Source of the DNA: an uncultured Bacilli bacterium
GTDB taxonomy: Bacteria; Bacillota_I; Bacilli_A; RF39; UBA660
Direction of reading: 5' to 3'
Length of the DNA: 64,000 nt
Assembly (NCBI GenBank): GCA_910579535.1
Contig: CAJTUR010000003.1
Coordinates: forward strand, 111 to 64,110
Position numbers and translations under genes: made by a program. Of this stretch, positions 2,772-59,987 are shown piece after piece. The notes beneath the pieces were generated by a model. The model saw only the letters and a program-made list of their open reading frames with translations, ran no database searches and had not been told where the DNA came from. Each line of letters opens with the position of its first letter. Position 1 is the first letter of the stretch.

Positions 2772-2823
2772 TTAAATTCACCCAAATAAATTGTATCATT
2801 AAAAGGTCTATTTATAAAGATTT

Positions 2824-5115
2824 TTAATACCAAGCCCTATCTGCACCAGAACTAGCATATTCTAAACCAACACTAACAAAACAATTAAAATTCTCAAATG
2901 TTTCTTGACCATTCCATTTTATCTGATCTACAAACATAGTCCACGGTCTTGAAGCACCTGGTTTTTTCTTATTACCTGCATTTATTTTTATTTTGTCACC
3001 TGGATTAAGCATTCCTTGATAATCAGCACCTTTGAAATATGGAACTGGTTTGTTTATAGTAAATTCAATAGGAGTAGACCATGCACAAAATTCATAACTA
3101 TTATTATTTGGAATATAATTTACACTTGTAAAAAGGTCTTGATCAATTGGAACTTGACTCCAATTTGCATTATTTATATTTGTATCATCATAACCTGGAC
3201 CGCCCGAAACGTAACCCACTTTAACATCCACTCCATCATTATACATAATTTTATGAATATAATCTGAAATATCAGGATCTGTTAAACCGAAAAATATATA
3301 AAAATCATTAACTTTTATTTCGCCAATTTTATTTCCAGTGGTTACATAGCGCAAGCCTTCGGCGGTATCAGTAACTTTTTTGCCTTCATATACAGGAATA
3401 GATGAACTTCCACGATTTATTAATATGAATGAGTTTGCCAAAGTATTAAATTCATTTAACTCAGAGGTTTCAATGGTAGAATATTCTTGAGATATGCCTT
3501 TATACCTTCCTGAAAAACCATCTTTATCTATTTCTATTGATTTTCCATTTGATGATATAGTTGTTGTAGCAAATTGGTCAAAAGCCCAATTATTTGGAAT
3601 TGTAAATCCTAAATTTCCACTAAAGCCTGTTGACATATCACTTACAAAACTACTACAAGCATATCCTGCATTACAAACCCTAGTACATACATTTCTACTT
3701 CCGTATATTCCTAAGCGATACTTACCACCACATTTAGACATAAAAGTACTATATAAAGTTTTAAAATAAGGTATTATATTACTTGTAATTTGTGCATCAG
3801 TAGCATCAAAATCAACTGCAAAATAAATAATTGTTCCAAATTGTAAATAGAATTTATTAGCATCATTTACTGCATTAATCGCATCATTTACTGCATTTAA
3901 ATTATTAAAATAATTTAAAGCATTTGCTCCCTTTTGAAATATAGGAAATAATCTTATTCCATTAGAGAAAATAGTTTTAATCTCTACCAAACTCATTTCT
4001 TTATCTAAACTACTTCCTTCAACATTTGATAAGTATCTACCAATATATAAATAACCATTATTTTTTAATACATCAACGTTATTTCCAGTTATTTTTGTTA
4101 TACAATCGCATGCAACTGCTTTTCTATCTTTATTTCCACAACTGATTAATAAAGAAAGCCATGTATTAAAATCAATTGTTCCTGTTTCTGATAAAGCATA
4201 CATTTTTTGAAATTCTTTAATAACATTTGCTTCTAAATCTCCAACTATTTGTCCTGAACCATACCCATTAAAATATAAGGCTATTTTGGCTAATCTTTTA
4301 AACATTGTTATATTTGAATCTGAATATTTAACTCCTTTATAACTTAGTCCATACGTTTGACCATTCATCTGATAACCGCCATTATATGGAATATTTGGTA
4401 AAGATTTCTGAGTAGCTGGACCGCAATTGCCATTAGCGGTTCCCACTGGCATACCTTCTTCGGCTTGTATAGCATAAATTAAACCTTGACTTGTTCTTCT
4501 ACCATAAACTCCGTCACAAGGACGTATTCCTATATAATTTTCATAATTTCCATTTAAATATCTTTGCATTAATATTATATTTTGCGTTCTTTCTGATGTA
4601 TTATAAGAAGTAAAATAATCCATTGATAGTAATGCTTTCATAATATTTAATGTTACTGTTGATGTTTCTGCTAAAACACCAGCATCTTCTTTTAATCTTT
4701 TTATTGCCTTTCCAGTATTAGTTAAAAAATTACAAGTAATTGAACTTGAACCATAACTATACCCTTTACAATTTAAAGCACCCTGAATTATTCCATAAAT
4801 ATTATGCATTGTTTGATCATTAAGTTGATTATTTAAACCATGTTGAGGAATTGTATTTTGATCTGGTTGTTCTAATATTCCATTGGGAAAATTATTTTTA
4901 AAAGCGGTTTCAGTTCCAGGACCAAAATTATTAGCTGGAGATGATAAACCTAAACATATTTGAAATGCTCTAGTAAGTGCATAAATAGTATCCCAACCAG
5001 TTTTACCATTTTCCGTTACATTATTGTAACCATTTTTACCACCAAATGTATCATTTAACCATTTTTGGGTATTTAATACATAGGGATCTCCATCTCTAGT
5101 ATTTTTATCTACCAT
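2824..5115 (-). CDS. Peptidoglycan-binding repeat / DUF1906 (Rv2525c-like glycoside-hydrolase-like) lysin-like protein with no signal peptide
   Basis: Repeated PG_binding_1-like segments (GWDTIYALTRAFQICLGL; GRRTSQGLIYAIQAEEGM). The DUF1906-like core has NNGYLYIGRYL, IIYFAVDFD, LGIYGSRNVC and NNWAFDQF. The likely start is ATG 5115 (RBS AGAGAGGTGA) rather than the track's TTG at 5142. Confidence 0.6.
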   Translation of the reverse strand: MVDKNTRDGDPYVLNTQKWLNDTFGGKNGYNNVTENGKTGWDTIYALTRAFQICLGLSSPANNFGPGTETAFKNNFPNGILEQPDQNTIPQHGLNNQLNDQTMHNIYGIIQGALNCKGYSYGSSSITCNFLTNTGKAIKRLKEDAGVLAETSTVTLNIMKALLSMDYFTSYNTSERTQNIILMQRYLNGNYENYIGIRPCDGVYGRRTSQGLIYAIQAEEGMPVGTANGNCGPATQKSLPNIPYNGGYQMNGQTYGLSYKGVKYSDSNITMFKRLAKIALYFNGYGSGQIVGDLEANVIKEFQKMYALSETGTIDFNTWLSLLISCGNKDRKAVACDCITKITGNNVDVLKNNGYLYIGRYLSNVEGSSLDKEMSLVEIKTIFSNGIRLFPIFQKGANALNYFNNLNAVNDAINAVNDANKFYLQFGTIIYFAVDFDATDAQITSNIIPYFKTLYSTFMSKCGGKYRLGIYGSRNVCTRVCNAGYACSSFVSDMSTGFSGNLGFTIPNNWAFDQFATTTISSNGKSIEIDKDGFSGRYKGISQEYSTIETSELNEFNTLANSFILINRGSSSIPVYEGKKVTDTAEGLRYVTTGNKIGEIKVNDFYIFFGLTDPDISDYIHKIMYNDGVDVKVGYVSGGPGYDDTNINNANWSQVPIDQDLFTSVNYIPNNNSYEFCAWSTPIEFTINKPVPYFKGADYQGMLNPGDKIKINAGNKKKPGASRPWTMFVDQIKWNGQETFENFNCFVSVGLEYASSGADRAWY

Positions 5116-45597: not shown

Positions 45598-48500
45598 TTA
45601 ATTCTTTTTCTTTTTTACTAAATAAATGGTTCCACCTAATGTTAAAATAGATACAGTTGCGACTAGATAGACAAAATAATTTGATTTTTTCTCAACTGTC
45701 TCTTCTACTTTTGGTGTATCATTATTATTTTTATTGGTATCATCAGAATCTGATTCATACGATTTATAAGATACAAGGTATTTTCCAAGTCCATTATTTT
45801 CAAAGATAATTTCATTATTTACTCTTCTAGAATTTAATTTGACAACACTTCCATCTTCTCTAATAACGTAAATGGCTTCAAACGTTTTATTAGGGTTTAA
45901 TTTTACAATTTGCTCAATTTTTTCGTTAGACAAGTTCACTTTTTTATTTTCTTTTGTTTCTAAAGCTAGTTCAAAAATTTCACTTTCTTCACCATAACGG
46001 TTTATTTGAGCATCGTTTAGGTTATGTTTTTTATACTCTAAAGTCACGTCATTATAATTTGATAAAATGGAATTTGGAATTTTTACTGTTACATTACCAC
46101 TTGTCAATTCTTTATAAGTGTTTTCATCAGGTTTTGTTGTCTCTTCAGTATTTGGCTTGCTCGATGTTCCAGGCTTATCTTGTGGTTTGCTATCTGGCTT
46201 GGTTCCTGTATTATTGTCTCCAGGTTTATTATTTGTTTGTTTCTTTATCCAAGTTACTACTGCTGTTGCGTATCCTTTATTACCCGCTCTATCTATAAAT
46301 TCAAAGGTAAATTCAGCGTTTTCATGGAAAGTATACGTTGATGCCCCTTTTCCTAAAATGGTTACTTGTTCACTTGGTTTTAGTGTAGCAACAACTGGCC
46401 CTTCTGTGGATTCTTTTGTACTGTACTCAATTGTGGCGGTTGGAGCGTCTTTGTCAATCCAATCCACTTTTACGGTGCTACTTCCTTTATTTCCAACTTT
46501 ATCTACAAATTCGAAGGTAAATTCGCCATTTTTTGTAAAGGTATAAGTTGTTTTTCCTTCATTATTGGTTACGGTTACTTCTTCATTTGGTTTTAATGTT
46601 ACCATTACGTCTTTGTTTGTCCATTCTTTTGTACTAAATTCAAATTCGGCGGTTGGAGCGTCTTTGTCAATCCAATCAACCGTTACAGGAATAATACCAT
46701 CGTAGCCATTTTGGTCTTTAAATTGGAAATTGAATGTTTCATTATTTGTAAATGTGTATTCATTACTAGCGTTATTATTAAATATTCTATAGCCTGCTTC
46801 TAATTCTAGTGTTGCTTTAACATCTTGATTGGTCCATGTAGTCGTTGAATATTTAATTTCGTATTTCGGCATTTTTGCTATCCAATTGACAACAACGGTT
46901 GCGGTATTCGCGTTTCCAGCTTTATCCACAAATTCAAAGGTAAATTCACCGTTATCTTTAAATGTATAGGTGTCTTTTCCACCATTATTGGTTACGGTCA
47001 CTTCTTCACTTGGTATTAAGGTAGCAATAACTTCACCATCTGTTAGATGAATGGTATTAAATTCAAATTCGGCGGTTGGAGCTTCTGTATCAATCCAATC
47101 GACTGTGATTATTTTTGTACCTATGTTTCCTAATGCATCTTGAAATTTTAATTCTACACTTTTATTTTCTAAGAAAGTAATTGTTTTGCTTCCATCTACG
47201 GGATTGGTTGCTAATTCTATGTCAGTGGATAAAATGGTAATGCTTTCTTTATCAAACGAAATGGTTGCCACTACGTTTTCATTTGTTGTTTCTGTAGTAC
47301 TAAATTGTACGTTTGCATTCGGAGCCACTTTATCTATCCAGTCTACTTTTGCTGTTGCTGTGCCTTTTTTCCCGTTTCGATCTACAAATTCAAAAGTAAA
47401 TTCGCCATTTTCAGTAAAAGTATACGTTGTTTTACCATCATTATTTGTTACAGTGATGGGTCTATTTTCATCTACTAATTCAGCTACGACATCTTTATTT
47501 GTGTTTTTAATAATGTTGTAGTTTATTTCCGCTGTTGGCACTTCACTGGCTGATGGATCTTCATATAAGTTGATAAGTGCGATTGAAAAGTAGTATTGAA
47601 GGCCTTGTTCATGAACAGATGGACAATTGATTCTTACATATTTTGCAAGGATTGGCTCATCAAAAGTAATTTTTTTCAAATTTCCATTATTTTCTAAATT
47701 ACTTTTTGTTGCTGCCAGTTCCCAATTGGTTCCATCCATACTGACATAAATGTCTAAACGACTCGCTTTTCCTGTTGGGTAATTCCCAAGTGCTGATGTA
47801 GCTCTAGCGTCCGGAACATAATCTAATTCGGATACGTATCTAGGTTTATCTAATTCTATAGTTGCATAAGCGGGAATGTATTTTTGTCCTATACTATTTT
47901 TATTGTAATAACTGTGCCATGCTGTATTGATGTTTCCATCTCTTATATTATCTTTATTTCCACCACTGGTTCCTGAAACGGCAATGACATTTAAATTATT
48001 TCTAGTTATATAACGACGTGATTCAGATGTTGTATTTGTTGTAAAGGTAAAATAAACGGGTTCACTCATTGTATTCATGCCTGTTGCAAGCATTCTTACA
48101 TAAACTCTTACGTCTCCTTTAAAGGTCGGATTCGTATCAGCAAAAGAATTCCATTCCCCATTTGGGTCTAAGGTCCATTCCATTTTATCGGTTGCACCCA
48201 TAATACGATTTTCTAAATCATCTATAGAAACTGTATTACTTGGGAATACGCCTTTTTTAATATCGATTGTATAAATATTTTCAGCTGTCATAGGCAATCC
48301 AGTAATATGTATTTTAATATCGTTTTCTTCTGTGATACTGTCTAATTGGTCTTTTGTTAACTGTGCTAAATGTTCATAACTCGGTATCCAAGTTGAACCG
48401 CCATCTAAACTATAAGTCCAAGTAACTTGAGCACTTTGTAATTGTTTTGATAACACAATTTTACCAGCGTTTGCTCCATCAAAAGAGAACGTTGCAACTC

Positions 48501-50595
48501 TTGAATCGACGACTCCTAAAATAGCATTCGCAATTACGGGTACTTCTTTAGTATAAATGGTGTTGGTGCTTGTTGCTTTTGTTGCTTGATGAAGTGTTTC
48601 ATCTTGTAGCATCATTAGTCTACTTCGATACCCTGGAGAAGTAATTTTAGAACCAAGCCTTCTTGTCATGTCATACATAGGTAAGGGATAATAAGTATAG
48701 GTTTCAGCAATTTCTTCAGCTAAGCTAATTAAATCGGCTTCAGATTTTGTACTATCGTTTAGGTATAAATTTACTAATCCAATCCATGCATCTAAATTTA
48801 TTCTTTCTTCTTTTAAAGCGTCTCTATAAATTTGTTCAAGTTTTTTTGAATCATTTTTATATACCTCTTCTAATAATAAAATTAATTCCGCTTTTTCATA
48901 TTTTTCATATTCATTTTGTGCATCTTGTGAAAGTAATAAATAGGAACCGGATTGAATCGTACCATTATTAGTTGCGTATTTACTTCCCCAACCATTGATT
49001 CCACCTCCAGTAGTATTTGCCCAACCAGTTGTAACCACACTGTTGGCTAATTGCCAAGCGTATTTTCCACCACCAGCGTGATACAAATAAACATAAGCGG
49101 CATGGCCTGGTTGCCCTACAACTCGCGCTGGGTATCCCCATACACCGTATAAATTAGCGGCTGTTTTCGATAATCCTCCACAAACGGCTCCTTCTTCAAA
49201 TACAATCCATAGTTTTGGTTTACCCGCTTGATAAGTTATATGGTATTTTGAAAGATTGTATTTTTGATCCCATTGGGCATAATTATTCTGGCTATAATAT
49301 TGTGGTCTATAATAACCATAATTTAAAGTATAATTTATATATTTATAAGGATTAAAACGTTCTGCGGTGGTTGAAAATTTTTTCGAATAATCATGAAGCC
49401 ATACAATTTCTTCATCATCAATATTAGTAATCATTACTCCACGCATTTCATCTATTGTATAACTTTCAAACATGGCGTTATCTAATTGTCCATTTAAATG
49501 CATATCTTTATAGATTTGATAACGAGTTACTGCATCAGAAAATTGGTTTCCACCAATCCATAATCCAACATTAGTTGAGTGTGTTAGAGATAAAGATAAC
49601 ATCATTTTTAAATATAAATCTTTATATTTTGTTCCTAAAGAGGTTACGTTTTCATTTTCTAAATCTTCTTTATAAGTATGATATAAATCACTTAATACTT
49701 GCAAAGCTCTTTCATAAGAGCCGTTTGGTCGTCCACCTATTGTCCATAATCGAAGGGCTTCTTCATTATTTAAAAACCAATCTAATGTTTCAGAATTTTT
49801 AGAATCCTTTTCTAAGAAGGAACGAAGTTGATATTGTCCTACTCTTTTAATAAAGGTTCTTTGTAGTAAAGTAAGTTTTAAGTCACCTTCAATCGTTCCA
49901 GAAGTATAGTTCGCTTTAATTTGCTCATCAAACTCTTCAACGGTTTTCATGACATTATCGTTGTAACCTTCTTTTACTAATTTAGCGTCTCCCCATACAG
50001 CATGGTCGCTTGCATTACTCCCATTATCACTTGCATAAAGTCTGATGTAATTCGCGTCTCTTATATCAATCTTTATGTGTACAGCACTATTTATTACTTT
50101 TAATGGTGTTGGATTTTCTTCAGTACGTAACGTCCAATTTTTTCCATCAGTTGAAGTATATATATAAAATTTCACACCATTACCATTATTACCAGCTGTT
50201 GTATTTAAGCCATAATAAGTCATAAAATAATCATACTCTTTATATTGGCTAATATCATACTCTACTGTAGAAGTAGCGTGGGCAAATATTCCTTTTTTAA
50301 CAACAACGGATGCTCCATCAATGTTTAGAACTAAAGAAGCATTCGAGTTTGTTTTATCTAATCCAAGTGTTCCCCATCCTACTTGAGCTTTTTGATAAGG
50401 AATATCTGATAAATAAAGGGCATCGTTTGTTTTAATTGTGTTGTAGGCTAAAACATTTCCATTTTCTGTTCTTATTGTTTTCCTAGACTCAAAAAAATGA
50501 CAAAAGGCTAAACTCCAATAAATAGCTATGGCAAAAAATAAAATCAATAAACTTTTTGCATGCCCTATTTTAAATAAAAAAAATTTCTTTTTCAT
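45598..50595 (-). CDS. Very large membrane-anchored surface protein with NPCBM, discoidin (F5/8-C)-like and transglutaminase-like modules plus six Ig-like repeats
   Basis: The NPCBM-like segment is LYLSDIPYQKAQVGWGTLGLDK. The Cys/His core is AVCGGLSKTA..GQPGHAAYVY. F5/8-C-like is DGNINTAWHS. Six repeats of 70-80 aa end in VDWIDK. C-terminal TM, no LPxTG. Likely start is MKKKFF at 50595. Confidence 0.7.
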   Translation of the reverse strand: MKKKFFLFKIGHAKSLLILFFAIAIYWSLAFCHFFESRKTIRTENGNVLAYNTIKTNDALYLSDIPYQKAQVGWGTLGLDKTNSNASLVLNIDGASVVVKKGIFAHATSTVEYDISQYKEYDYFMTYYGLNTTAGNNGNGVKFYIYTSTDGKNWTLRTEENPTPLKVINSAVHIKIDIRDANYIRLYASDNGSNASDHAVWGDAKLVKEGYNDNVMKTVEEFDEQIKANYTSGTIEGDLKLTLLQRTFIKRVGQYQLRSFLEKDSKNSETLDWFLNNEEALRLWTIGGRPNGSYERALQVLSDLYHTYKEDLENENVTSLGTKYKDLYLKMMLSLSLTHSTNVGLWIGGNQFSDAVTRYQIYKDMHLNGQLDNAMFESYTIDEMRGVMITNIDDEEIVWLHDYSKKFSTTAERFNPYKYINYTLNYGYYRPQYYSQNNYAQWDQKYNLSKYHITYQAGKPKLWIVFEEGAVCGGLSKTAANLYGVWGYPARVVGQPGHAAYVYLYHAGGGKYAWQLANSVVTTGWANTTGGGINGWGSKYATNNGTIQSGSYLLLSQDAQNEYEKYEKAELILLLEEVYKNDSKKLEQIYRDALKEERINLDAWIGLVNLYLNDSTKSEADLISLAEEIAETYTYYPLPMYDMTRRLGSKITSPGYRSRLMMLQDETLHQATKATSTNTIYTKEVPVIANAILGVVDSRVATFSFDGANAGKIVLSKQLQSAQVTWTYSLDGGSTWIPSYEHLAQLTKDQLDSITEENDIKIHITGLPMTAENIYTIDIKKGVFPSNTVSIDDLENRIMGATDKMEWTLDPNGEWNSFADTNPTFKGDVRVYVRMLATGMNTMSEPVYFTFTTNTTSESRRYITRNNLNVIAVSGTSGGNKDNIRDGNINTAWHSYYNKNSIGQKYIPAYATIELDKPRYVSELDYVPDARATSALGNYPTGKASRLDIYVSMDGTNWELAATKSNLENNGNLKKITFDEPILAKYVRINCPSVHEQGLQYYFSIALINLYEDPSASEVPTAEINYNIIKNTNKDVVAELVDENRPITVTNNDGKTTYTFTENGEFTFEFVDRNGKKGTATAKVDWIDKVAPNANVQFSTTETTNENVVATISFDKESITILSTDIELATNPVDGSKTITFLENKSVELKFQDALGNIGTKIITVDWIDTEAPTAEFEFNTIHLTDGEVIATLIPSEEVTVTNNGGKDTYTFKDNGEFTFEFVDKAGNANTATVVVNWIAKMPKYEIKYSTTTWTNQDVKATLELEAGYRIFNNNASNEYTFTNNETFNFQFKDQNGYDGIIPVTVDWIDKDAPTAEFEFSTKEWTNKDVMVTLKPNEEVTVTNNEGKTTYTFTKNGEFTFEFVDKVGNKGSSTVKVDWIDKDAPTATIEYSTKESTEGPVVATLKPSEQVTILGKGASTYTFHENAEFTFEFIDRAGNKGYATAVVTWIKKQTNNKPGDNNTGTKPDSKPQDKPGTSSKPNTEETTKPDENTYKELTSGNVTVKIPNSILSNYNDVTLEYKKHNLNDAQINRYGEESEIFELALETKENKKVNLSNEKIEQIVKLNPNKTFEAIYVIREDGSVVKLNSRRVNNEIIFENNGLGKYLVSYKSYESDSDDTNKNNNDTPKVEETVEKKSNYFVYLVATVSILTLGGTIYLVKKKKN
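46245..47545 (-). repeat. Six tandem coding repeats (about 210-240 nt each) encoding Ig-like modules
   Basis: The protein repeat (A)PTAEFEFST..VTVTNN.GK.TYTF..NGEFTFEFVDK.GN...A.V.VDWIDK occurs six times. DNA segments such as GGCGGTTGGAGCGTCTTTGTCAATCCAATC recur at about 46437 and about 46648. Confidence 0.75.
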
Positions 50596-51018
50596 AAAAA
50601 ACTCCTCCACATCTTAAATTTATATCTTTTATCTATCTATTAAAATTATGGAATTATGCTTGTTCATAACTACATAATCTATTCTTCTTATACATTATCA
50701 TATATTATTTTAATATACAACACACTTTACATATAGAAATACAACGTTATTCAATCTATTATATGATGGAATTTAAAAAAATTTCAAAATCAAGATAGAG
50801 TTTTTTTATAAAAATTGTTGTTTATAACTTTTTATAAGAAATAAAGACCTTTAAGAATCCTTCTTCATTTTAATACGATTCTAATTGGGTCTTTTTATCA
50901 TTTTTGAAAATCATTTCCGATAAAAAGTTGATGACCCTTTCTTTTTGTTCACATTCTTTTAAGTCAACGAGTATCATTTTTTCTAGTAAAATACAAATTA
51001 AGTAAAACTTTTTTTACC

Positions 51019-51043
51019 TAAAAAAAAGAACTTTGAAGTTCTT
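51019..51043 (-). terminator. Rho-independent terminator after the 875-aa gene
   Basis: Stem AAGAACTT / AAGTTCTT (51026-51043), followed on the minus strand by T7-8. Confidence 0.65.
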
Positions 51044-51050
51044 AATTTTA

Positions 51051-53678
51051 TTAATTTGTAATTTCTATTGTTTTTGTTAGTCTAACGGTTTTGTTGTTTT
51101 TGTCTGTTGCCATTATGGCAATTTCATATTCACCCACTGGTAAAACATAATTTTGAATTTCAATGGTTACTTTTTTAGCTTCCATGTTGTTTATCATAAA
51201 CATGAGTTTAGCTGGTAAAGACCCACCATTTACAATTGAAATGGTTACATCGTCTTGAGTTATATTGTATAAAAGTTCTTCATTAAATTCTATTTTAAAA
51301 GATTTGTTTGTGTAGTCTATGTTTGTTATTTGTAAAGAGCTTTCTGATGGTGGAGCTGGTTTTTCATATTCAGGAATTTTGTAATGATCCACAAAACCAA
51401 CTCGATAATTTCCTACAGTGTCGACAAATAATGCCCAAACGCGAGTATTTTTTGTAACTTCGCTTTTACTTAAATCAAGATGAATGGTATTTGATCCCGT
51501 GTTTAGAGTTTGTTTTTGACTTTTTATTTTTCCTGTTAAGACATCGCTTGCAAAAGGCGTTGTGGAATTATAGTCATAAATACCACCATTCCATTCGTAT
51601 AGACCATAATAAACGGTTCCAGCTTCATCCGAATTAAATTTAAATTCTGCTTCGGTTTCTGATACTCTTTTTACATTATCTACCGCTCCTGTAATCACTG
51701 GTGGATTTAAATGGGTTGCGAATTCTTTTTCGATGGCTTTTTCATTTTCGTCTATTTTAATTCTTACTGTGTATTCATTATCTTTGTGACCATAATTATC
51801 TGGAATAACAATGATATAGGTTAATAAGTCAGGACTGACATAAAAAGTGGCTTCTTTGATAGTTAAACTACTATCACTTGGACAATCGATTTGAAAATCT
51901 TCTAAAGTTAATTCTCTTTCTGGAACACGATTTAATTTAAAGACAAAACGATTGCTTATTTCTTCTTTAGCGTAAATGATTTCATAGTCGCTTGGGTTTT
52001 CTTCTTTTGGTTGACTAGGTATGGTAATGGGTCCTTTTACTTTTGATAAATTTTCAAAATAACCTTCAATGACATAATACAATTGATAGCTTTCAGAAGA
52101 AACTAATCCGTTTATTGGAAGGCTATTAAAGCCAACTTTTACATTTGCAACTTGACCATTTTTCTTAATGGTTTCTTCATCTAGAGTTATTCTTTCTTTT
52201 GCGTTATCTAAAATATAATAGATTTTTCCTCCTTCATCTACGCCATAGAGTTTTAAAACAGCTTCTGTTTCAGTCAATCTTTCTATTTTAACGTTTTCTA
52301 CGGTTGGGTTAGCGTAATCGGTGTCAAACTCTTTACTGATGATGTTTCCATTTGGTAAGGTAAGATAAAGGGCGTAGGAATCATTTTTATAATAAGAGGT
52401 TGAGAGGGTGTATGTTTTTTTATCTTTTGTTGTTAGATTAAATAAAGTAATACTTTTTCCCGCATTACAAATGACTGAAAGATCTTTTAATGTTAATTCA
52501 ATTTCTTCACTTAATGTGAAAGTTACACTTCCTTGAGCATTAGAGTAAGCCTCAACAATACGTACTGATTCTTCTTGACGAATTAAAAGTTGTTCTACTT
52601 GATCGCTCACGTTTTTGTTGGTTACATTGGTATAAATTCTTGTATTATTCGCTTCAATGGTTGCATTTGTGATTGTTCCTGTTCCCGCAATAATCGTATT
52701 TTCTCCTTTATTATTTAAGTTCGTAATTTTATTTTCACCATTGATTCTTATCGTACTTTCTTCATGATTTGTAAATGTTTCTATGGGTGCGTTTACTACA
52801 ATAGTGGCCTTCTTTTGGTTAATAAGTGTGTCGATATTCTGATTTAAGGCCACATGGCCTGTTGTGTTTAGTAATACGTTTTGACTTTTAATGTTTAAGA
52901 TTACTTCAGAGCTATTATTGACTTCAATGTTGGTAACTGGATTGGTTCCATTTATTTCAACATTGCTGTTAATAGAAAGATTTTTTATTTCACTGTCAGT
53001 AACGTTAATGGTTGCTCCTTCTAAAGTTTTATTTATATTTTTAACGGTTCGGAAAAAACTAAATAGGTTGTTTCTTTTTATATTTGCTACGACCATATTT
53101 GGAATACTTGAGTTCAAAATGTCTATTTGGTATTTTCCAGGATTTTCAATTATTAATTCTTGTTTTATTTCTACTTTGTCTAAAACAATTTTGGCATGAC
53201 TTTCTATATCGGATGCTATGGATACTGTATTGTATTTTTTATTACTTAAATAATACGTTCCGTTCGTTATTAAAGTATTATCAATGATTAAATCTTCTAG
53301 TTTTTCTTCAGGCTTTGTTGGTTCTTCTGGCTTTACTGATGGTTTATCATCAGGCTTTACTGGTACAGTAGGAACACTAGGTTTTTGTTGATTGTTTGGT
53401 TTTGCTTGAGTCGTATTAGAAGGTTCTACTGGTTTTTCAGGTTCTTTTTTTTCTTCATCTGGTTTATTCTCTTCACTTGGTTCCTCATCGGTTTTAATTT
53501 CTTCCTCGTTGTTTTCTTTATTAGTGTCTTTGTCATTGTAAATTGGATTTTCTTTCTTTTCCTCTGGTTCTTGTGACGTGACCCTCTCTTTTTCTTTTCG
53601 ATTGGAGAATACTTTCATTCCTCCTGTTATTCCTAAGGCAATGACCAAAAGAATAATGATTATTTTTATTTTTTTCAT
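51051..53678 (-). CDS. Large membrane-anchored surface protein with a Pro/Glu/Lys-rich stalk
   Basis: 875 aa. N-terminal TM is IKIIIILLVIALGITGG. The stalk has low-complexity PEEKKE/KPEEPTKPEE repeats, followed by beta-rich repeats. Confidence 0.6.
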   Translation of the reverse strand: MKKIKIIIILLVIALGITGGMKVFSNRKEKERVTSQEPEEKKENPIYNDKDTNKENNEEEIKTDEEPSEENKPDEEKKEPEKPVEPSNTTQAKPNNQQKPSVPTVPVKPDDKPSVKPEEPTKPEEKLEDLIIDNTLITNGTYYLSNKKYNTVSIASDIESHAKIVLDKVEIKQELIIENPGKYQIDILNSSIPNMVVANIKRNNLFSFFRTVKNINKTLEGATINVTDSEIKNLSINSNVEINGTNPVTNIEVNNSSEVILNIKSQNVLLNTTGHVALNQNIDTLINQKKATIVVNAPIETFTNHEESTIRINGENKITNLNNKGENTIIAGTGTITNATIEANNTRIYTNVTNKNVSDQVEQLLIRQEESVRIVEAYSNAQGSVTFTLSEEIELTLKDLSVICNAGKSITLFNLTTKDKKTYTLSTSYYKNDSYALYLTLPNGNIISKEFDTDYANPTVENVKIERLTETEAVLKLYGVDEGGKIYYILDNAKERITLDEETIKKNGQVANVKVGFNSLPINGLVSSESYQLYYVIEGYFENLSKVKGPITIPSQPKEENPSDYEIIYAKEEISNRFVFKLNRVPERELTLEDFQIDCPSDSSLTIKEATFYVSPDLLTYIIVIPDNYGHKDNEYTVRIKIDENEKAIEKEFATHLNPPVITGAVDNVKRVSETEAEFKFNSDEAGTVYYGLYEWNGGIYDYNSTTPFASDVLTGKIKSQKQTLNTGSNTIHLDLSKSEVTKNTRVWALFVDTVGNYRVGFVDHYKIPEYEKPAPPSESSLQITNIDYTNKSFKIEFNEELLYNITQDDVTISIVNGGSLPAKLMFMINNMEAKKVTIEIQNYVLPVGEYEIAIMATDKNNKTVRLTKTIEITN

Positions 53679-53877: not shown

Positions 53878-54438
53878 TTATTTTTCAGAAAAGCGTTGTG
53901 TTAATAAGTCAAATAGTTTTTTATGTTCTTCACCGTAAGGGACATATTCAGGGTCTTTGTTTTTCAATTTTGTTTGTAAATGTTCATAATTTATGTATTT
54001 TATATCGGTGACTTCTTCAACTTGTAATTTGGTATGTTCTATGTCTACATTTAAAGGAAGTAAATAAACATCATCAAAAACTTTTAATGTTGAATATTCA
54101 CATATTTGTTCTCTTTTTAGAGTGAATAAGTATTCTAATTCCTGTTCTTTTACGTTCAAATCTAACTCTTCTTTTAATTCTCGTACAGCGGTTTGTTTAC
54201 TTGTTTCTCCTTTTAATACATGACCAGCACAAGATAAGGCCCATAGATTTGGAAAGGTCTTTTTGTTAGGGTTTCTTTTTTGCATTAGAAGTTCTTTATT
54301 CTCATTTATAATCCAAATGTGAACAGTACGATACCAATACCCTTTTTGATAAATTTCTTCTTTGGTTGCGGATAAGCCAGAACTGGTTCCATCTTCATTT
54401 AAAATATCTAGTCTTTCATTCATTTCATCTGTCATCAT
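53878..54438 (-). CDS. NUDIX hydrolase (Idi-like)
   Basis: The Nudix box GHVLKGETSKQTAVRELKEELDL fits Gx5Ex7REUxEE. Confidence 0.8.
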   Translation of the reverse strand: MMTDEMNERLDILNEDGTSSGLSATKEEIYQKGYWYRTVHIWIINENKELLMQKRNPNKKTFPNLWALSCAGHVLKGETSKQTAVRELKEELDLNVKEQELEYLFTLKREQICEYSTLKVFDDVYLLPLNVDIEHTKLQVEEVTDIKYINYEHLQTKLKNKDPEYVPYGEEHKKLFDLLTQRFSEK

Positions 54439-54514
54439 TTCACCTAATATTATTATAGCATAAAAGTTAAGTGAGTCAGTTTAATGTTCATTTAAACAGG
54501 ATTCATAAATTTAT

Positions 54515-54826
54515 CTAAATTGAATTTTTTAATAACAAAAGTTTATAATCTTTTAACATAGTTTTTAATTTTTTTATTTTTAACTCATTATTTTTTTGAG
54601 CTGAATATAAATTAAAAATTTTAATGTAATGTTCATTTCTTTTTTTATAGTATTCTTTTAATTTTTTCTTTTGAAAGAAAAAGGGTTTTGCATTATTCAA
54701 ATATTCTATTTGTTGAAAAGAAAATTTTAATTGTTCTTTTATAATTTTTAAATATAGTTCTGTTTCTTTTATATCAATTTCTACAAATATTTTGATTAAT
54801 TGTACATTTAATTCGTTTTCTTTCAT
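54515..54826 (-). CDS. Hypothetical coiled-coil protein
   Basis: 103-aa ORF with no motif recognised. Confidence 0.4.
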   Translation of the reverse strand: MKENELNVQLIKIFVEIDIKETELYLKIIKEQLKFSFQQIEYLNNAKPFFFQKKKLKEYYKKRNEHYIKIFNLYSAQKNNELKIKKLKTMLKDYKLLLLKNSI

Positions 54827-54932
54827 AATTGTCCTTCTTATCTTTAAATAATTATATCACATAATATCGTAATTTTGCATAAAAAAGGAATAATAGCTTT
54901 TTGAATGGGAAAATTACACTTGGTGGTAAACT

Positions 54933-55364
54933 ATGACTTTTGAAAGATTGCTAGATATTAGAGAAGACGCTGATATGAAACAAGATGAAATGGCTGAGCT
55001 ATTAAAAACGACACAATCTAATTATTCGAGATGGGAAAACGGAAAAGAATTAATTCCATTAAAAAAACTAAATTTATTATGTAATTATTTTAATGTTAGT
55101 ATGGATTATGTTATAGGATTCACTAGAAAAAATATTCCAAATGGTAAACACGAAATAAATTTAAAAATCATTGGCAAAAATATAAAAACATTAAGAGAAA
55201 AAAATAATATCACACAGATTCAATTAGCTAAGTTATTAAATACTTCTCAATCAACTATTAGTGGAGCTGAAAATGGAAAAAATATATTGTTGATGGCTTT
55301 TGCTTTGCAAATTGTACAAGAATATCATGTTTCTCTTGATTGGCTATGTGGTAGAATAAAATAA
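54933..55364 (+). CDS. XRE-family regulator with two HTH_3 domains
   Basis: First HTH is MKQDEMAELLKTTQSNYSRWENG and the second is ITQIQLAKLLNTSQSTISGAENG. Confidence 0.8.
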   Translation: MTFERLLDIREDADMKQDEMAELLKTTQSNYSRWENGKELIPLKKLNLLCNYFNVSMDYVIGFTRKNIPNGKHEINLKIIGKNIKTLREKNNITQIQLAKLLNTSQSTISGAENGKNILLMAFALQIVQEYHVSLDWLCGRIK

Positions 55365-55386
55365 ATCGCGAAAAGGCGATTTTTTG
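55364..55386 (+). terminator. Rho-independent terminator after the XRE gene
   Basis: AATCGC-GAAAAG-GCGATT followed by TTTTTG. Confidence 0.6.
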
Positions 55387-55440
55387 TTGTTTTAAATTAA
55401 AGATTAGTTTATTAAAGGAAAAAATTTCCACCTATTTCAA

Positions 55441-55480
55441 CAAACAAATGTTTGATTTGTTATTTTTTTTCATATATAAT
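55441..55480 (+). promoter_or_regulatory. Sigma-A-type promoter of the radical SAM operon, with an overlapping palindrome CAAACAAATGTTTG
   Basis: -35 TTGATT (55452-57), a 17-nt spacer, then -10 TATAAT (55475-80). The 6+2+6 palindrome at 55441-54 overlaps the -35. Confidence 0.5.
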
Positions 55481-55499
55481 AAGTTTTGGTGATGTGCTT

Positions 55500-56714
55500 A
55501 TGGAATTAAAAGAAAAGTTGCAAATTTTAGCCGATAGTGCCAAATACGATGCTTCCTGTTCTTCTAGTGGAAGTCACCGAAAAACAACTCATGGCATTGG
55601 TAATGTAGCGGTGAGTGGTATTTGTCATTCTTTTTCTTCTGATGGAAGATGCATTTCTCTTTTAAAAATATTACTTACTAATTGTTGTATTTTTAATTGT
55701 AAGTATTGCTTAAATCGAAAAAGCAACACGATTAAAAGAGCGATTTTTACTCCAGAAGAGATTTGTGAAGTTACCATAAATTTTTATCGTCGAAATTATA
55801 TTGAAGGTTTGTTTTTAAGTTCTGGAATTGTAAAAAGTCCTGATTATACAATGGAACTTTTAATAGAAACACTACGACTTTTGAGAAAAAAATATCATTT
55901 TGGAGGCTATATTCATGCAAAAGCGATTCCTGGTGCTAGTGAAAAACTTTTAAAAGAACTGGGAAGTTTAGTTGATCGTTTAAGTGCCAATATTGAACTT
56001 CCAACCGAAAATGGGCTCAAGTTACTAGCTCCTAATAAAGATTCTTCTAAGGTTCATAAAATTATGCATTATGTTAAAACCAATCAAAACAATCAGTATG
56101 TTCCGGCGGGACAAAGTACACAAATGATTATTGGAGCGACAAAGGAAAGCGATTTAGAGATTATGGAAAAAAGTAGTCATCTTTACGATACTTATCATTT
56201 AAAAAGGGTTTTTTATTCAGCCTATATTCCAGTAAATAAAGACAGTTTACTTCCTAGTTTAGAAAAACCTCCTCTAAAAAGAGAAAATCGACTTTATCAA
56301 GCGGATTTTTTACTTCGTTTTTATCATTTTAAAGTCAAAGATTTATTAAATCCTGACAATCCAAATTTTAATATTTTGGTGGACCCAAAAGCGGATTGGG
56401 CATTAAGACATTTAGATGAATTTCCTAAAGAAGTGAATACGAGTTCCTATAATGATTTACTAAAAATACCTGGTATTGGGGTAAAATCAGCCAAAAGAAT
56501 CATTTATTCAAGACGTATTTTTAAATTGTGTTTTGATGATTTAAAGAAAATGGGTGTTGTGTTAAAAAGGGCTAAATATTTTATTACTTGTGGAGGAAAA
56601 TATTTTCTTGATTCAAGTTTGTTTAAAAAAGAATTTATCGAAAAAAATTTAGTTTTAGAAGAGTTTATTCCTGAGAAAAAAGAATTTGAACAGTTGAGGC
56701 TATTTAATGAATAA
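55500..56714 (+). CDS. Radical SAM protein of the putative DNA modification/repair type (TIGR03916-like) with a C-terminal helix-hairpin-helix
   Basis: LADSAKYDASCSSSG is a typical N-terminus for this family. The CxxxCxxC motif is CIFNCKYC. The HhH is LLKIPGIGVKSAKRII. The start at ATG 55500 (RBS GGTGAT) is preferred to the track's TTG 55452, which lies inside the promoter. Confidence 0.75.
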   Translation: MELKEKLQILADSAKYDASCSSSGSHRKTTHGIGNVAVSGICHSFSSDGRCISLLKILLTNCCIFNCKYCLNRKSNTIKRAIFTPEEICEVTINFYRRNYIEGLFLSSGIVKSPDYTMELLIETLRLLRKKYHFGGYIHAKAIPGASEKLLKELGSLVDRLSANIELPTENGLKLLAPNKDSSKVHKIMHYVKTNQNNQYVPAGQSTQMIIGATKESDLEIMEKSSHLYDTYHLKRVFYSAYIPVNKDSLLPSLEKPPLKRENRLYQADFLLRFYHFKVKDLLNPDNPNFNILVDPKADWALRHLDEFPKEVNTSSYNDLLKIPGIGVKSAKRIIYSRRIFKLCFDDLKKMGVVLKRAKYFITCGGKYFLDSSLFKKEFIEKNLVLEEFIPEKKEFEQLRLFNE

Positions 56715-57456
56715 TGGGTGTTTTATTTATGAAGATACGTTTTTAAGTCTTTTAAATTTAATTCATTATTTGTTAAAAAATGCTATTAAACCCGATAAGA
56801 TTAAAAATACTTCTTATTCTCCTAATTTGTTTGATGAAGTGGTTCATTTAACTATTTTAGAAGAAAAAGAGATTTTTAATAAAGTGATTCAATTAATCGG
56901 GTCTTATGCTGCACGAGCGCTTTATTATGTTTTTTTATCCAATGAAGAAAATAAAGAGCTCATTCTTTATTATCTTTTATTAAATGGTCAAAAGTATAAG
57001 GAAAAGATTTTGTTTCATCGCCATTTGCGTTGTGTAAGTGAAACAATCCGAATTTCAAATTACGTTGTTCATGAAGTGCATAAATATAAAGGATTTGTTC
57101 GTTTTCAAGAACTGGAAAACCATATTTTATATGCGGAGATTGAACCTGTTAATGACGTCTTGGAATTCATTTCTCTTCATTTTAAGAAAAGATTAAAAAA
57201 TGACTACTGGATTATAAAAGACGTGGGAAGAAATAGATTGAGTCTTTATGATAAAAAGAATTATTATTTGGTTTCAAGTCATGAATTTAGTCTCGAAACA
57301 ACCCTTAAAAGTCATGAAGAACAAAAGGTGGAAGAATTATGGAAAGCCTTTTATAAAACGATTGGTATACAAGAAAGAAAAAACGAACGCTGTCGGATGA
57401 ATTTTATGCCTAAAAAATATTGGAAATATATGTTAGAGATGGAGGATGAATTATGA
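56707..57456 (+). CDS. DUF4130 / TIGR03915-like putative DNA-metabolism protein, partner of the radical SAM protein
   Basis: 249 aa with an 8-nt overlap with the radical SAM gene. The size, the obligate pairing and the C-terminal KAFYKTIGIQERKNERCRMNFMPKKYWKYM segment fit the family (from memory). Confidence 0.65.
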   Translation: MNNGCFIYEDTFLSLLNLIHYLLKNAIKPDKIKNTSYSPNLFDEVVHLTILEEKEIFNKVIQLIGSYAARALYYVFLSNEENKELILYYLLLNGQKYKEKILFHRHLRCVSETIRISNYVVHEVHKYKGFVRFQELENHILYAEIEPVNDVLEFISLHFKKRLKNDYWIIKDVGRNRLSLYDKKNYYLVSSHEFSLETTLKSHEEQKVEELWKAFYKTIGIQERKNERCRMNFMPKKYWKYMLEMEDEL

Positions 57457-59006
57457 AAAAAGTGATGACAGGACTTTCTTTACAGGAAAAAATGTTAGAA
57501 AGTGTTGATTATTTAGTTGATATTGTAAAAACAACTTTGGGACCTCAAGGAAGAAATGTGTTGATTGACCATTCAATGTTTAGTCCTTTTGTGACTAATG
57601 ATGGGGCGACTATTGCCCAAAATATTGAGAGTGAAGATGCGGTTATTAATACCATTTTAGAAATAACAAAAGAAGCTTCTTTAAAAACGGATGAAATTGT
57701 AGGAGATGGAACGACGACGACTTTAGTGCTTTTGCAAAGTCTTTTTCATTCTTGTTTAAAACAAATTCAAGCCGGAAAGTCTCCGATGATTTTAAAAAAA
57801 GAGATGAATCATGATTTACAAGTTCTTATTGATAAATTAGCAAGAGATAAAAGTGTTCCTAATCAAAAGCATTTGCTTTCTATTGCTCGTATTGCTGCAA
57901 AAGATGAAGAAATCGGAACAATGGTGGCTTCAGTTTTTGAAAGAGTAAAGCATCAAAATGCGATTACTATAAAAGAAGTTTCTAATACTACTTTAAAAGT
58001 TCTTTATCTAACGGGTTACCAATGCGCTATCGAACTTGCAAGTGATTATTTTTTAAGAGAACAAAAAAGTCTTTCTCTTTCTCAGGCTCACGTTTTAATT
58101 GTTCAAGATTTAGTAAGTGATTTAGAACCTCTTCATTTTATTTTAAATGATTGTATGGCCAATCAAAAAAGTTTGGTTCTTTTAGCTCATGATTTTGATG
58201 AGCAAGTTGTAAAAGAAATGGTTTCTTTAAATTTAGAAAAGGCTTTAACCTGTGTTCTATTTAAAGTGGCGGATTATGGTCTACATCAAAGAAAAATTGA
58301 AAAAGACCTTGAAGTATTAACGAATGCTAAGATTGTTTTAGATTATCCCTCTCTTTCTTTAGAAAATTTGGGAAGGATTGAAGAGATTACTTTTACTCAA
58401 AATGAGGCAATTTTAAAATTTGAGAAAACACCAAAGATAAATCATTATTTTTCTTTATTAAAAGAAGAAAGTAAGAATTTAAAGAGTGATTTTGAAATTG
58501 ACTTTTATCAAAAAAGAATGGCGATGATTCAAAATGGTTTAGCGGAGATATGGGTTGGTGCTCCAACAAAAACAGAAGGTCATGAAAAGAAAATGCGCAT
58601 TATGGACGCACTTGGAGCTATTAATAGTGCCAATGAAGGAGTATTACTCGGTGGTGGTGTTGCCCTTATAAAAGTCGCTCATGAATTAGAAGGACTGAGT
58701 CCTGTTTCTATTACTTTTAAAGAGGCACTCGAAGCTCCTTTTAAACAAATATTACTGAATGCGGGACTTGATGTGTCATCTATTCAAAAAGAAATTGAAA
58801 ATTCTAATTTTGAAAAAGTATACAATGTTAATTTAGAAAAAATGGAAGAGAAAGAGTCAACTACGGTTTTAGATCCATTTTCAGTTCTTGTAAATTCTTT
58901 AATACACGCCACTTCTATTGCTACTATGCTTTTTACTACTAGTAGTTTAGTCATTAATGAACACGATAATCATTTAAATAAAACGAACGAATATACAGAA
59001 ATTTAA
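57453..59006 (+). CDS. Divergent GroEL/Cpn60-family chaperonin paralog (no GroES gene, no Gly-Met tail)
   Basis: Matches to GroEL include TLGPQGRNVLID, TNDGATIAQNIE, VGDGTTTTLVL, VGAPTKTEGHEKKMRIMDALGAINSANEGVLLGGGVAL and VLDPFSVLVNSLIHATSIATMLFTT. The start codon overlaps the upstream stop (ATGA). Confidence 0.8.
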   Translation: MKKVMTGLSLQEKMLESVDYLVDIVKTTLGPQGRNVLIDHSMFSPFVTNDGATIAQNIESEDAVINTILEITKEASLKTDEIVGDGTTTTLVLLQSLFHSCLKQIQAGKSPMILKKEMNHDLQVLIDKLARDKSVPNQKHLLSIARIAAKDEEIGTMVASVFERVKHQNAITIKEVSNTTLKVLYLTGYQCAIELASDYFLREQKSLSLSQAHVLIVQDLVSDLEPLHFILNDCMANQKSLVLLAHDFDEQVVKEMVSLNLEKALTCVLFKVADYGLHQRKIEKDLEVLTNAKIVLDYPSLSLENLGRIEEITFTQNEAILKFEKTPKINHYFSLLKEESKNLKSDFEIDFYQKRMAMIQNGLAEIWVGAPTKTEGHEKKMRIMDALGAINSANEGVLLGGGVALIKVAHELEGLSPVSITFKEALEAPFKQILLNAGLDVSSIQKEIENSNFEKVYNVNLEKMEEKESTTVLDPFSVLVNSLIHATSIATMLFTTSSLVINEHDNHLNKTNEYTEI

Positions 59007-59035
59007 AAAAGATAAAGTGGTCTTTATCTTTTTAT
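59007..59035 (+). terminator. Rho-independent terminator of the radical SAM/DUF4130/GroEL-like operon
   Basis: AAGATAAAG-TGGT-CTTTATCTT followed by TTTAT. Confidence 0.65.
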
Positions 59036-59213: not shown

Positions 59214-59987
59214 TTAATCGTAATCGTATTTGTAATAGGTATTTCTTTCTTTATGAAAAGTAAAACTTCTTTGTAATTTTCTAATATTTAAATGATTGGT
59301 ATTGAGGAGGTTTTTATAAGCTTCAAAAAATTCATAAATTTTTTTGTAATCTCTGTAAATCGTAGCATTATATAAATTGAAAAGTTCTATATTATCGATA
59401 ATTAATAATTGATCATCTTTAACTTTAAAAATTGTTTCTAAAATTGTTTTTAGTATTTTTGTGCTGTTCCACGCTCTTAAATCTTTTTTAGAACTTTCAA
59501 AAAGACCAAAGTCTAAATCAATGACATAATAATAACCATTAAACAAAATATTACGATTATGAACATCTCCTAAAAGAAAATTTTTGCTACTGATTAAATA
59601 AGTGTCTTCTATTAGTTTTTCGATATGAGTCACTAAAGATTCTACTTTGGTATCCAAACTTATTTTCTCTACTGTATGAGCTCGCTTATAATCCATTAGA
59701 TAACCTAGGACTCCCTTTTGATAAAGAATTATACCTTTTGGAGCTATGAAGGTATCATTATTTAATGTACTTAAATTCAGAATATGTTCTTTCATATCAA
59801 ATTGATTAAATAATTCGTTTCTTTTATTTGTTTGGCGATAAATTTTTAATAATAAACCATTCGGAAGTTTAAAACAATAACTTGTTTTTCCATAACCTAT
59901 AAATTGACTTCTTTTTAATAATTGAAAAAGCTCCATTTTGCTATCTAAATTAATTGTTGTAAATTGATTATTTTGAGTTATTTTCAT
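59214..59987 (-). CDS. Protein-kinase-like fold protein (small, stand-alone)
   Basis: Candidate motifs are the Gly-rich loop IGYGKTSYCF, a Lys in LLLKIY, the catalytic loop GDVHNRNILF and the DFG-like IDLDFG. Confidence 0.5.
   Translation of the reverse strand: MKITQNNQFTTINLDSKMELFQLLKRSQFIGYGKTSYCFKLPNGLLLKIYRQTNKRNELFNQFDMKEHILNLSTLNNDTFIAPKGIILYQKGVLGYLMDYKRAHTVEKISLDTKVESLVTHIEKLIEDTYLISSKNFLLGDVHNRNILFNGYYYVIDLDFGLFESSKKDLRAWNSTKILKTILETIFKVKDDQLLIIDNIELFNLYNATIYRDYKKIYEFFEAYKNLLNTNHLNIRKLQRSFTFHKERNTYYKYDYD

Follow-up and report, generated by a model that had tools for sequence, protein, structure and literature searches.

Radical SAM proteins of the TIGR03916 family and their TIGR03915 (DUF4130) partners occur as a pair in roughly a fifth of prokaryotic genomes, according to the model description. 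We take COG4277 to be the same family as TIGR03916. DUF4130 has been predicted to be a mutagenesis-related enzyme associated with SplB-like radical SAM proteins and uracil-DNA glycosylases (UDGs) (Aravind and colleagues, PMC3765255). In a 2026 preprint, a DUF4130-radical SAM heterodimer was confidently predicted by AlphaFold 3 (AF3), and DUF4130 was modelled with a RecJ/DHH-like fold that lacks the catalytic residues, for which the authors suggested nucleic-acid binding (bioRxiv 10.64898/2026.08.19.745780). SOS regulation has been reported for a two-gene UDG-COG4277 (COG1573-COG4277) operon of Verrucomicrobia, Alphaproteobacteria, and Bacteroidetes (PMC8565304); this operon appears to correspond to the TIGR03916/TIGR03915 pair. 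Another radical SAM enzyme that acts on DNA, the spore photoproduct lyase SplB, is SOS-linked in several phyla (PMC3765255, PMC8565304). Here we describe a locus in which the TIGR03916/TIGR03915 pair is followed by a third gene for a diverged paralog of the chaperonin GroEL (the Cpn60 paralog). It lies at positions 54933-59035 of a 64-kb stretch of contig CAJTUR010000003.1 from an uncultured Bacilli bacterium; this whole stretch is called the window, and all coordinates count its first letter as position 1. The radical SAM, DUF4130, and Cpn60 genes form a conserved, co-transcribed, and translationally coupled three-gene unit. An earlier reading of the window by a model (the original prediction) had held a chaperonin in such an operon to be undescribed, and no published description was found here either. 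None of PMC3765255, PMC8565304, and the preprint mentions a chaperonin, and full-text literature searches returned no paper linking DUF4130 to a chaperonin, no match for TIGR03916, no paper joining "GroEL paralog" with radical SAM or chaperonin with "repair radical SAM protein", and nothing relevant on RF39 plus GroEL.

Four plus-strand open reading frames (ORFs) lie within 54933-59035 and are surrounded by a minus-strand region. The last three overlap and span 55500-59006 (+) in the order radical SAM, DUF4130, Cpn60. The product of the first of these genes (55500-56714, +) matches TIGR03916 over profile positions 1-414 of 415 (7.6e-183, 608.3 bits, cutoff 343.5) as well as PF04055, and its CX3CX2C motif reads C-IFN-C-KY-C. 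For the C-terminal helix-hairpin-helix that had been predicted in the same protein, Pfam gave only a weak match under the gathering score (HHH_3, 2.8e-4). The second gene (56707-57456, +) overlaps the first by 8 nt (ATGAATAA), and its product matches TIGR03915 (204.7 bits, cutoff 112.25) and PF13566 (5.9e-42, 143.6 bits). The two genes are adjacent, and both are bona fide members of their families. As a radical SAM enzyme that would act on DNA, the first protein resembles SplB; unlike SplB, it matches TIGR03916 and not an SplB model. Whereas DUF4130 of TIGR03916/TIGR03915 pairs is often fused to a family-4 UDG, DUF4130 of the window stands alone, without a UDG fusion, and the third gene encodes a chaperonin paralog of 517 amino acids (57453-59006, +; PF00118, 1.2e-43, 150 bits). 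Its start codon overlaps the DUF4130 stop codon in an ATGA, and a GGAGG sits 8 nt upstream. Apart from the helix-hairpin-helix, the genes and their overlaps are as the original prediction had described them.

The linkage between the Cpn60 paralog and DUF4130 is robust and not incidental. When the genomic contexts of Cpn60 relatives with 54% down to 28% identity were looked up, the gene followed DUF4130 directly in all 13 cases, usually overlapping it, and a radical SAM gene was found upstream of the DUF4130-Cpn60 genes wherever the contig extended far enough. Upstream of the relative P0198, a 72-nt remnant encodes the DUF4130 hallmark MNFMPKKYWK. For the reverse test, metagenomes were scanned with a DUF4130 alignment and the loci of the best 80 of 404 matches were searched with the three window proteins, a sample that shows the limit of the association and not its overall frequency. 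Loci with at least 500 nt downstream of DUF4130 were regarded as informative. Where DUF4130 is at least 40% identical to that of the window, the Cpn60 gene is present in 27 of 27 informative loci, including those fetched earlier; below 40% identity, it occurs only in L014, L032, L034, and L035. About 45 other informative and more distant radical SAM/DUF4130 pairs contain neither Cpn60 nor a conserved third gene. The ORFs downstream of such pairs are unrelated to one another and, as read from their sequence, encode uronate isomerase-like, NUDIX, GalE-like, epimerase, and NlpC/P60 proteins. At L090 the presence of Cpn60 is ambiguous, as the contig ends early. Every related locus open to examination thus shares the adjacency first seen in the window.

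In a neighbor-joining tree, all DUF4130-linked Cpn60 proteins form one clade separate from housekeeping GroEL. This clade includes less diverged members, encoded at L032 (3042-4091) and L176 (1337-2953; P0263, 538 aa), which are 40 and 37% identical to E. coli GroEL, respectively. They look like early-branching forms and may be intermediates between housekeeping GroEL and the family of the window. In a tree based on concatenated radical SAM and DUF4130 sequences, the linked loci cluster along with a single additional locus, and 51 of 100 bootstraps separate the linked set cleanly or nearly so from the remaining loci. The identities of the three proteins to their window counterparts co-vary across loci (Spearman 0.85-0.90; 0.87 for radical SAM and Cpn60, 0.85 for DUF4130 and Cpn60; n=22), with means of 75% for radical SAM, 53% for DUF4130, and 45% for Cpn60. 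All three genes are under purifying selection, as for Cpn60 is indicated by a dN/dS of 0.12-0.28; the values are 0.06-0.09 for radical SAM and 0.11-0.16 for DUF4130. Cpn60 evolves faster than its radical SAM neighbor, and divergence at such a rate is unlike housekeeping GroEL.

The Cpn60 paralog has the three-domain Cpn60/TCP-1 fold and is nearer to group I than to group II or III chaperonins. The main GroEL models of NCBIfam assign it 283-333 bits and a sixth (NF010704) 215 bits, all below their cutoffs (TIGR02348, 312.5 vs. 582.1; NF000592, 329.5 vs. 397; NF009487, 333.4 vs. 352), whereas thermosome models reach 57-59 bits; NCBIfam holds no model for the clade. Compared with sequences in the PDB, the protein scores 216-243 bits against GroELs and at most 65 bits against group II chaperonins. 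The AlphaFold 2 (AF2) model of the monomer (pLDDT 90.4) shows the full three-domain GroEL fold, and its closest Foldseek matches are GroES-bound GroEL subunits (TM 0.83-0.84). A search of 5.8 billion proteins retrieved at least 120 clusters of relatives (at 90% identity), which share 41-74% identity with the window protein and, with few exceptions, measure 500-528 aa. When 1.84 billion representatives at 50% clustering were scanned exhaustively with HMMER, about 60 members of the family emerged with scores from 495 down to about 250 bits, grading into ordinary GroELs at about 240-200 bits. Named relatives stem from metagenome-assembled genomes (MAGs) of uncultured "Bacilli bacterium", and the closest species-representative genomes found with the window protein as query, for three relatives, are "uncultured Tenericutes" and "uncultured Bacilli" MAGs. 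The proteins are annotated as "hypothetical protein" at NCBI and as "chaperonin GroEL" at JGI. They share 24-36% identity (mean 28.5%) with E. coli GroEL, a divergence in line with the original prediction. Two proteins from the HMMER scan, P0220 and P0223, are about 1080 aa long and each contain two Cpn60-like stretches with 27-28% identity to the query; they would be tandem-fused chaperonin subunits.

Mapping of 103 family sequences onto E. coli GroEL numbering separates a conserved engine from remodeled surfaces. The Cpn60 paralog resembles canonical GroEL of the GroEL/GroES system (TIGR02348) in its three-domain fold, nucleotide-site residues, hinge glycines, and acidity. The nucleotide and magnesium site is essentially invariant (T30, G32, P33, D52, G53, D87, G88, T89-91, D398, G414, G416, N479, D495), with G415 as a variable exception, and D52, D87, T89-91, D398, G414, G416, and D495 as well as the hinge glycines G192, G375, and G410 are retained in 94-103 of the 103 sequences. 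The motifs TNDG, GDGTTT, IMDAL, and GGGVAL, already recognized in the original prediction, are invariant or nearly so across the family. The TNDG variant with N49 is the Firmicutes form of GroEL, as judged from B. subtilis GroEL and from the pattern TNDG[VA]TIA, which matched many chaperonin genes on viral contigs that are taken as host groEL. The stem-loop and terminal strands that knit the ring together are hydrophobic throughout. Identity to E. coli GroEL is 37% in the equatorial and 17% in the apical domain, where conservation within the family is lowest as well. Among the contacts for clients and GroES, Y203, F204, L237, L259, and V263 mostly remain hydrophobic; L234 (to S/A/N) and V264 (to S/A) are changed in most members, and Y199 becomes L/I/V. 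The allosteric salt bridge between R197 and E386 is lost (R197 to T/I/S, E386 to K), and the ring-ring contacts A109, R452, E461, S463, and V464 are variable or charged, A109 and V464 being charged in most members. Thus, unlike canonical GroEL, the paralog has mostly non-hydrophobic residues at L234 and V264 and lacks the R197-E386 and A109/R452/E461/V464 contacts. It further differs in being always encoded after DUF4130, in having no groES (neither the window nor any of 94 loci contains a GroES-like sequence), and in lacking the Gly-Met tail, which is found in none of 54 family representatives. Instead, the proteins end in a tail of about 15 residues, INE[YH]xNNxNKxN[ED][YF]x[EDN][LIW]-COOH (short form NEYxE[L/I]), which is disordered in the AF2 model and, as far as could be found, undescribed. 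With a mean pI of 5.2 and a net charge of -7 in the apical domain, the family matches GroEL in acidity.

Duplicated GroELs with altered C-termini and apical domains are known from several bacteria. Such client-specialized paralogs include GroEL2 of Myxococcus, Cpn60.1/GroEL1 of M. tuberculosis, the nif- and nod-linked forms of rhizobia, and GroEL2/3 of Chlamydia; as in the locus described here, they often have no adjacent groES and are presumed to serve a narrow range of clients. GroEL paralogs with non-canonical C-termini are discussed in PMC11978752. However, the client-specialized paralogs are much closer to housekeeping GroEL, and none of them belongs obligately to an operon with radical SAM and DUF4130. 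The models for the chlamydial variants (NF038370 and NF038369) assign only 83 and 71 bits to the Cpn60 paralog. The single-ring GroELs of phages (phiEL gp146, PDB 6tmt; AR9) likewise have no GroES partner, a diverged apical domain, and probably a narrow client range. In contrast to them, the paralog is chromosomal, probably SOS-linked, and not found in the viral contigs of IMG/VR, and it scores 68.6 bits against 6tmt vs. 216-243 bits against cellular GroELs.

Transcription signals frame the three genes. A sigma-70-type promoter (TTGATT-17-TATAAT, 55452-55480, +) with 10 of 12 consensus matches precedes the radical SAM gene, as the original prediction had proposed. The ORF of this gene opens at TTG 55452; because this codon lies inside the -35 hexamer and a Shine-Dalgarno sequence that is conserved across divergent loci (GGTGAT, 55488-55493, +) precedes ATG 55500, the latter is almost certainly the true start. 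The predicted terminator after Cpn60 was recovered as an AT-rich hairpin followed by a U-run (59006-59033, +; dG -10.9 kcal/mol, z -4.2), and none of 200 shuffles folds equally well. A consensus terminator scan missed it because it has fewer than three G-C pairs. A control element that the original prediction had not noticed is a conserved LexA-type palindrome upstream of the operon. In the window it reads CAAACAAATGTTTG (55441-55454), a Cheo-box-like CAAAC-N4-GTTTG that overlaps the -35 hexamer; the reference operator is of the Firmicutes Cheo type (CGAAC-N4-GTTCG-like). In 35 of 67 loci, RAAC-N4-GTTY is found in the 100 nt that precede the radical SAM gene, at a density of 5.37 per kb vs. 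0.075 per kb elsewhere in the same loci (about 70-fold). All 25 Cpn60-linked upstream regions examined match 7-8 of the 8 positions of the box, which is located at -55 to -58 in 20 of them (e.g., L001, L005-L008, L016, L018, L019, L022, and L023), and in several a further copy lies close to the -10 hexamer. In an alignment of divergent loci (A3), the box, the -10 hexamer, the Shine-Dalgarno sequence, and the ATG are invariant, and the promoter spacing is conserved as well. Unlinked radical SAM/DUF4130 pairs often carry a textbook Firmicutes Cheo box (CGAACATATGTTCG). Because the conserved box overlaps the -35 hexamer, the operon probably is SOS-controlled, which agrees with the published regulation of the UDG-COG4277 operon in other phyla (PMC8565304). 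In its first two genes and the LexA-type box, the locus thus resembles the known pair and the SOS-regulated COG1573-COG4277 operon.

The gene that opens the plus-strand locus encodes a double-helix-turn-helix regulator of the XRE family (54933-55364, +; PF01381, HTH_3, 9e-27, in two stretches) and is closed by an intrinsic-terminator-like hairpin (55363-55382, +) found in a terminator scan. The original prediction was right about this gene and its own terminator, but the gene is strain-specific and lies outside the conserved unit. As it is absent from all other Cpn60-linked loci, it was rejected as the regulator of the operon. The closely related locus L005 (97% identity in Cpn60) has an unrelated 129-aa ORF at this position, before the same terminator. 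The region between the NUDIX gene and the promoter thus appears as a swap region (window about 54450-55390, L005 3320-3990) that contains a 103-aa ORF (-) and the XRE gene in the window and the 129-aa ORF in L005, and an identical terminator hairpin closes both.

Since the Cpn60 paralog is diverged, has no groES gene nearby, and always follows DUF4130, it looks like a dedicated ATP-driven helper and not like a housekeeping chaperonin. The best reading, to which we give somewhat better than an even chance, is a client-specific, GroES-independent chaperonin for the radical SAM-DUF4130 complex. The three-gene operon is a lineage-specific elaboration of the widespread two-gene pair in mostly uncultured gut Firmicutes. 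In an ancestral member of the Firmicutes, a duplicated GroEL may have been captured directly downstream of DUF4130 and may then have turned into a dedicated partner of the pair. It kept the ATP-hydrolysis engine and the hinges, while the apical domain that binds clients and GroES was remodeled, the back-to-back ring contacts and the R197-E386 switch were lost, and the Gly-Met tail gave way to NEYxE[L/I]-COOH. Upon DNA damage, the three proteins would be produced together. The paralog would work without GroES, probably as a single ring or lower oligomer, and spend ATP on the Fe-S complex of radical SAM and DUF4130, which it would fold, hold, or assemble and which in turn may act on damaged DNA. 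There is precedent for such roles: in E. coli, GroEL is required for UmuC function; GroEL is also required for the insertion of the nitrogenase metallocluster, and Myxococcus, Mycobacterium, and rhizobia possess GroEL paralogs that serve specific clients.

Several points weigh against a dedicated chaperonin. The physical interaction of the paralog with the pair, its oligomeric state, and its ATPase activity are inferred. The CAAAC-N4-GTTTG box is a putative LexA operator, and the binding of LexA is a prediction. The absence of a second groEL refers to the 64-kb window, and that of groES to the window and to loci with flanks of at most 10 kb. Support for a single acquisition of Cpn60 on the radical SAM and DUF4130 tree is only moderate. 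Finally, identity to the radical SAM protein of the window is 58-83% in linked loci (up to 99% in the closest relatives) vs. 50-63% in unlinked ones. The radical SAM proteins of linked loci are therefore not visibly different, and there is no obvious reason why one lineage should keep a private chaperonin.

The strongest alternative is that the co-opted ATPase is an integral working subunit of a repair machine instead of a folding helper. As a ring or platform, it might keep the oxygen-sensitive radical SAM enzyme on DNA or shield it there, or it might remodel DNA or nucleoprotein and dock via the conserved C-terminal peptide. The ATGA coupling to DUF4130, which is present in most loci and implies co-production of the two proteins, would fit such a subunit, as would the disordered NEYxE[L/I] motif with its resemblance to a docking peptide, the remodeling of the apical domain around a retained engine, and the DNA-repair genes that are often encoded nearby (Ku/LigD, AddAB, RecD2, PriA, UDG). 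In addition, GroEL1 of M. tuberculosis has been reported as DNA-binding. However, the acidity of the family argues against direct DNA binding, and the mostly hydrophobic Y203, F204, L237, L259, and V263 are what would be expected for polypeptide binding. On this evidence, a working subunit is possible but rather unlikely. A bolder form of this idea, which we hold to be doubtful, sees the GroEL-derived ATPase as a stoichiometric subunit of an SOS-induced radical SAM machine for DNA repair or modification, docked via its C-terminal peptide, whose chamber or ATP cycle would present the substrate to the Fe-S enzyme or would protect or reset that enzyme. If this were true, a chaperonin scaffold would have been turned to nucleic-acid enzymology instead of protein folding. 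A basic DNA-binding surface on the paralog was considered and found unsupported, the family being as acidic as GroEL.

The paralog could also be a general stress chaperonin that is induced in the SOS response and serves many damage-response proteins; its place in this operon would then only let it share the LexA-controlled promoter. The LexA-type box, the partly hydrophobic apical groove, and the dependence of UmuC on GroEL in E. coli would agree with this. Nevertheless, the gene stands strictly after DUF4130 in every examined locus and was never seen under another SOS promoter, it co-varies with the radical SAM/DUF4130 pair, and its fast-evolving apical domain is unlike that of a chaperone with broad specificity. 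A general role therefore seems improbable to us.

It is much less plausible still that the gene is the housekeeping groEL and adjoins the pair by chance, although no other groEL and no groES were found within the 64-kb window. Such a gene would not be expected to fail all GroEL cutoffs at 24-36% identity to the E. coli protein, to lack a GroES partner, the Gly-Met tail, and the inter-ring and allosteric residues, to evolve faster than the radical SAM gene in both dN/dS and identity, or to keep its adjacency to DUF4130 clade-wide. Moreover, some of the linked lineages are spore formers according to their CotJ and GerA genes (L014, L175), and spore-forming Firmicutes carry groESL. An origin as cargo of a phage, mobile element, or defense system is the least credible option: PHROG 5725 ("chaperonin groEL") matches with 327 bits, an ICE-like region occupies 1-45 kb of the window, and an IS21 helper (IstB) and Mob genes adjoin the trio in L009, but IMG/VR contained neither a member of the Cpn60 family nor DUF4130, its best Cpn60 matches are only 29-33% identical, mostly at contig ends, and taken as host groEL at prophage edges, PADLOC gave no matches for the three proteins, and the flanks consist of different housekeeping genes in each lineage. 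On the IMG/VR and PADLOC negatives, a phage or defense origin was rejected.

The surroundings of the operon differ among lineages. DNA-repair genes recur beside the trio, namely Ku with LigD (twice), AddAB-like genes, RecD2, UDG with NUDIX, and PriA (L002 11759-14822; L009 1918-4927; L001 1-2781; L008 8832-11036; L004 3024-4188; L012 3998-6187). The operons of the window and of L001 each have a NUDIX gene as a neighbor (53878-54438, -, in the window). In L013, and in this locus only, a gene for HSP90 (HtpG; 2808-4694) lies directly downstream of the Cpn60 paralog. The ORF downstream of the operon in the window (59214-59987, -; 257 aa) has no Pfam match at 1e-4. By our own reading, its stretch GDVHNRNILF...VIDLDFG resembles the catalytic and Mg-binding loops of APH/choline-kinase-like kinases. 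Upstream, two large predicted surface proteins of 1670 and 875 aa are encoded at 45598-53678 (-); the former contains NPCBM and F5/8 type C (glycan-binding) domains, and the latter, which matches no Pfam family, has a hydrophobic segment at its N-terminus and a low-complexity linker rich in P, E, and K. The minus-strand block at 1-45000 resembles an integrative conjugative element (ICE) and encodes a DUF3801 protein, a 2524-aa protein with SNF2/ResIII helicase domains, a sortase, a SpaA/TED thioester adhesin (932 aa), and a DinG-like helicase (671 aa).

The radical SAM/DUF4130 pair is widespread. That in one lineage it has acquired its own ATP-driven chaperonin paralog suggests that making or operating the complex is limiting, and expressing the three genes together, as in their natural cassette, may be a way to obtain soluble enzyme with its cluster loaded for biochemical work. 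The Cpn60 paralogs, currently annotated as "hypothetical protein" or, wrongly, as "chaperonin GroEL", constitute a large natural chaperonin family that probably is GroES-independent and probably forms single rings. It combines an intact engine with a rewritten client-binding domain, a new conserved tail, and, as is rare, a built-in candidate client. A specialized GroEL paralog joined to a known but uncharacterized SOS repair pair thus offers a testable handle for both fields.

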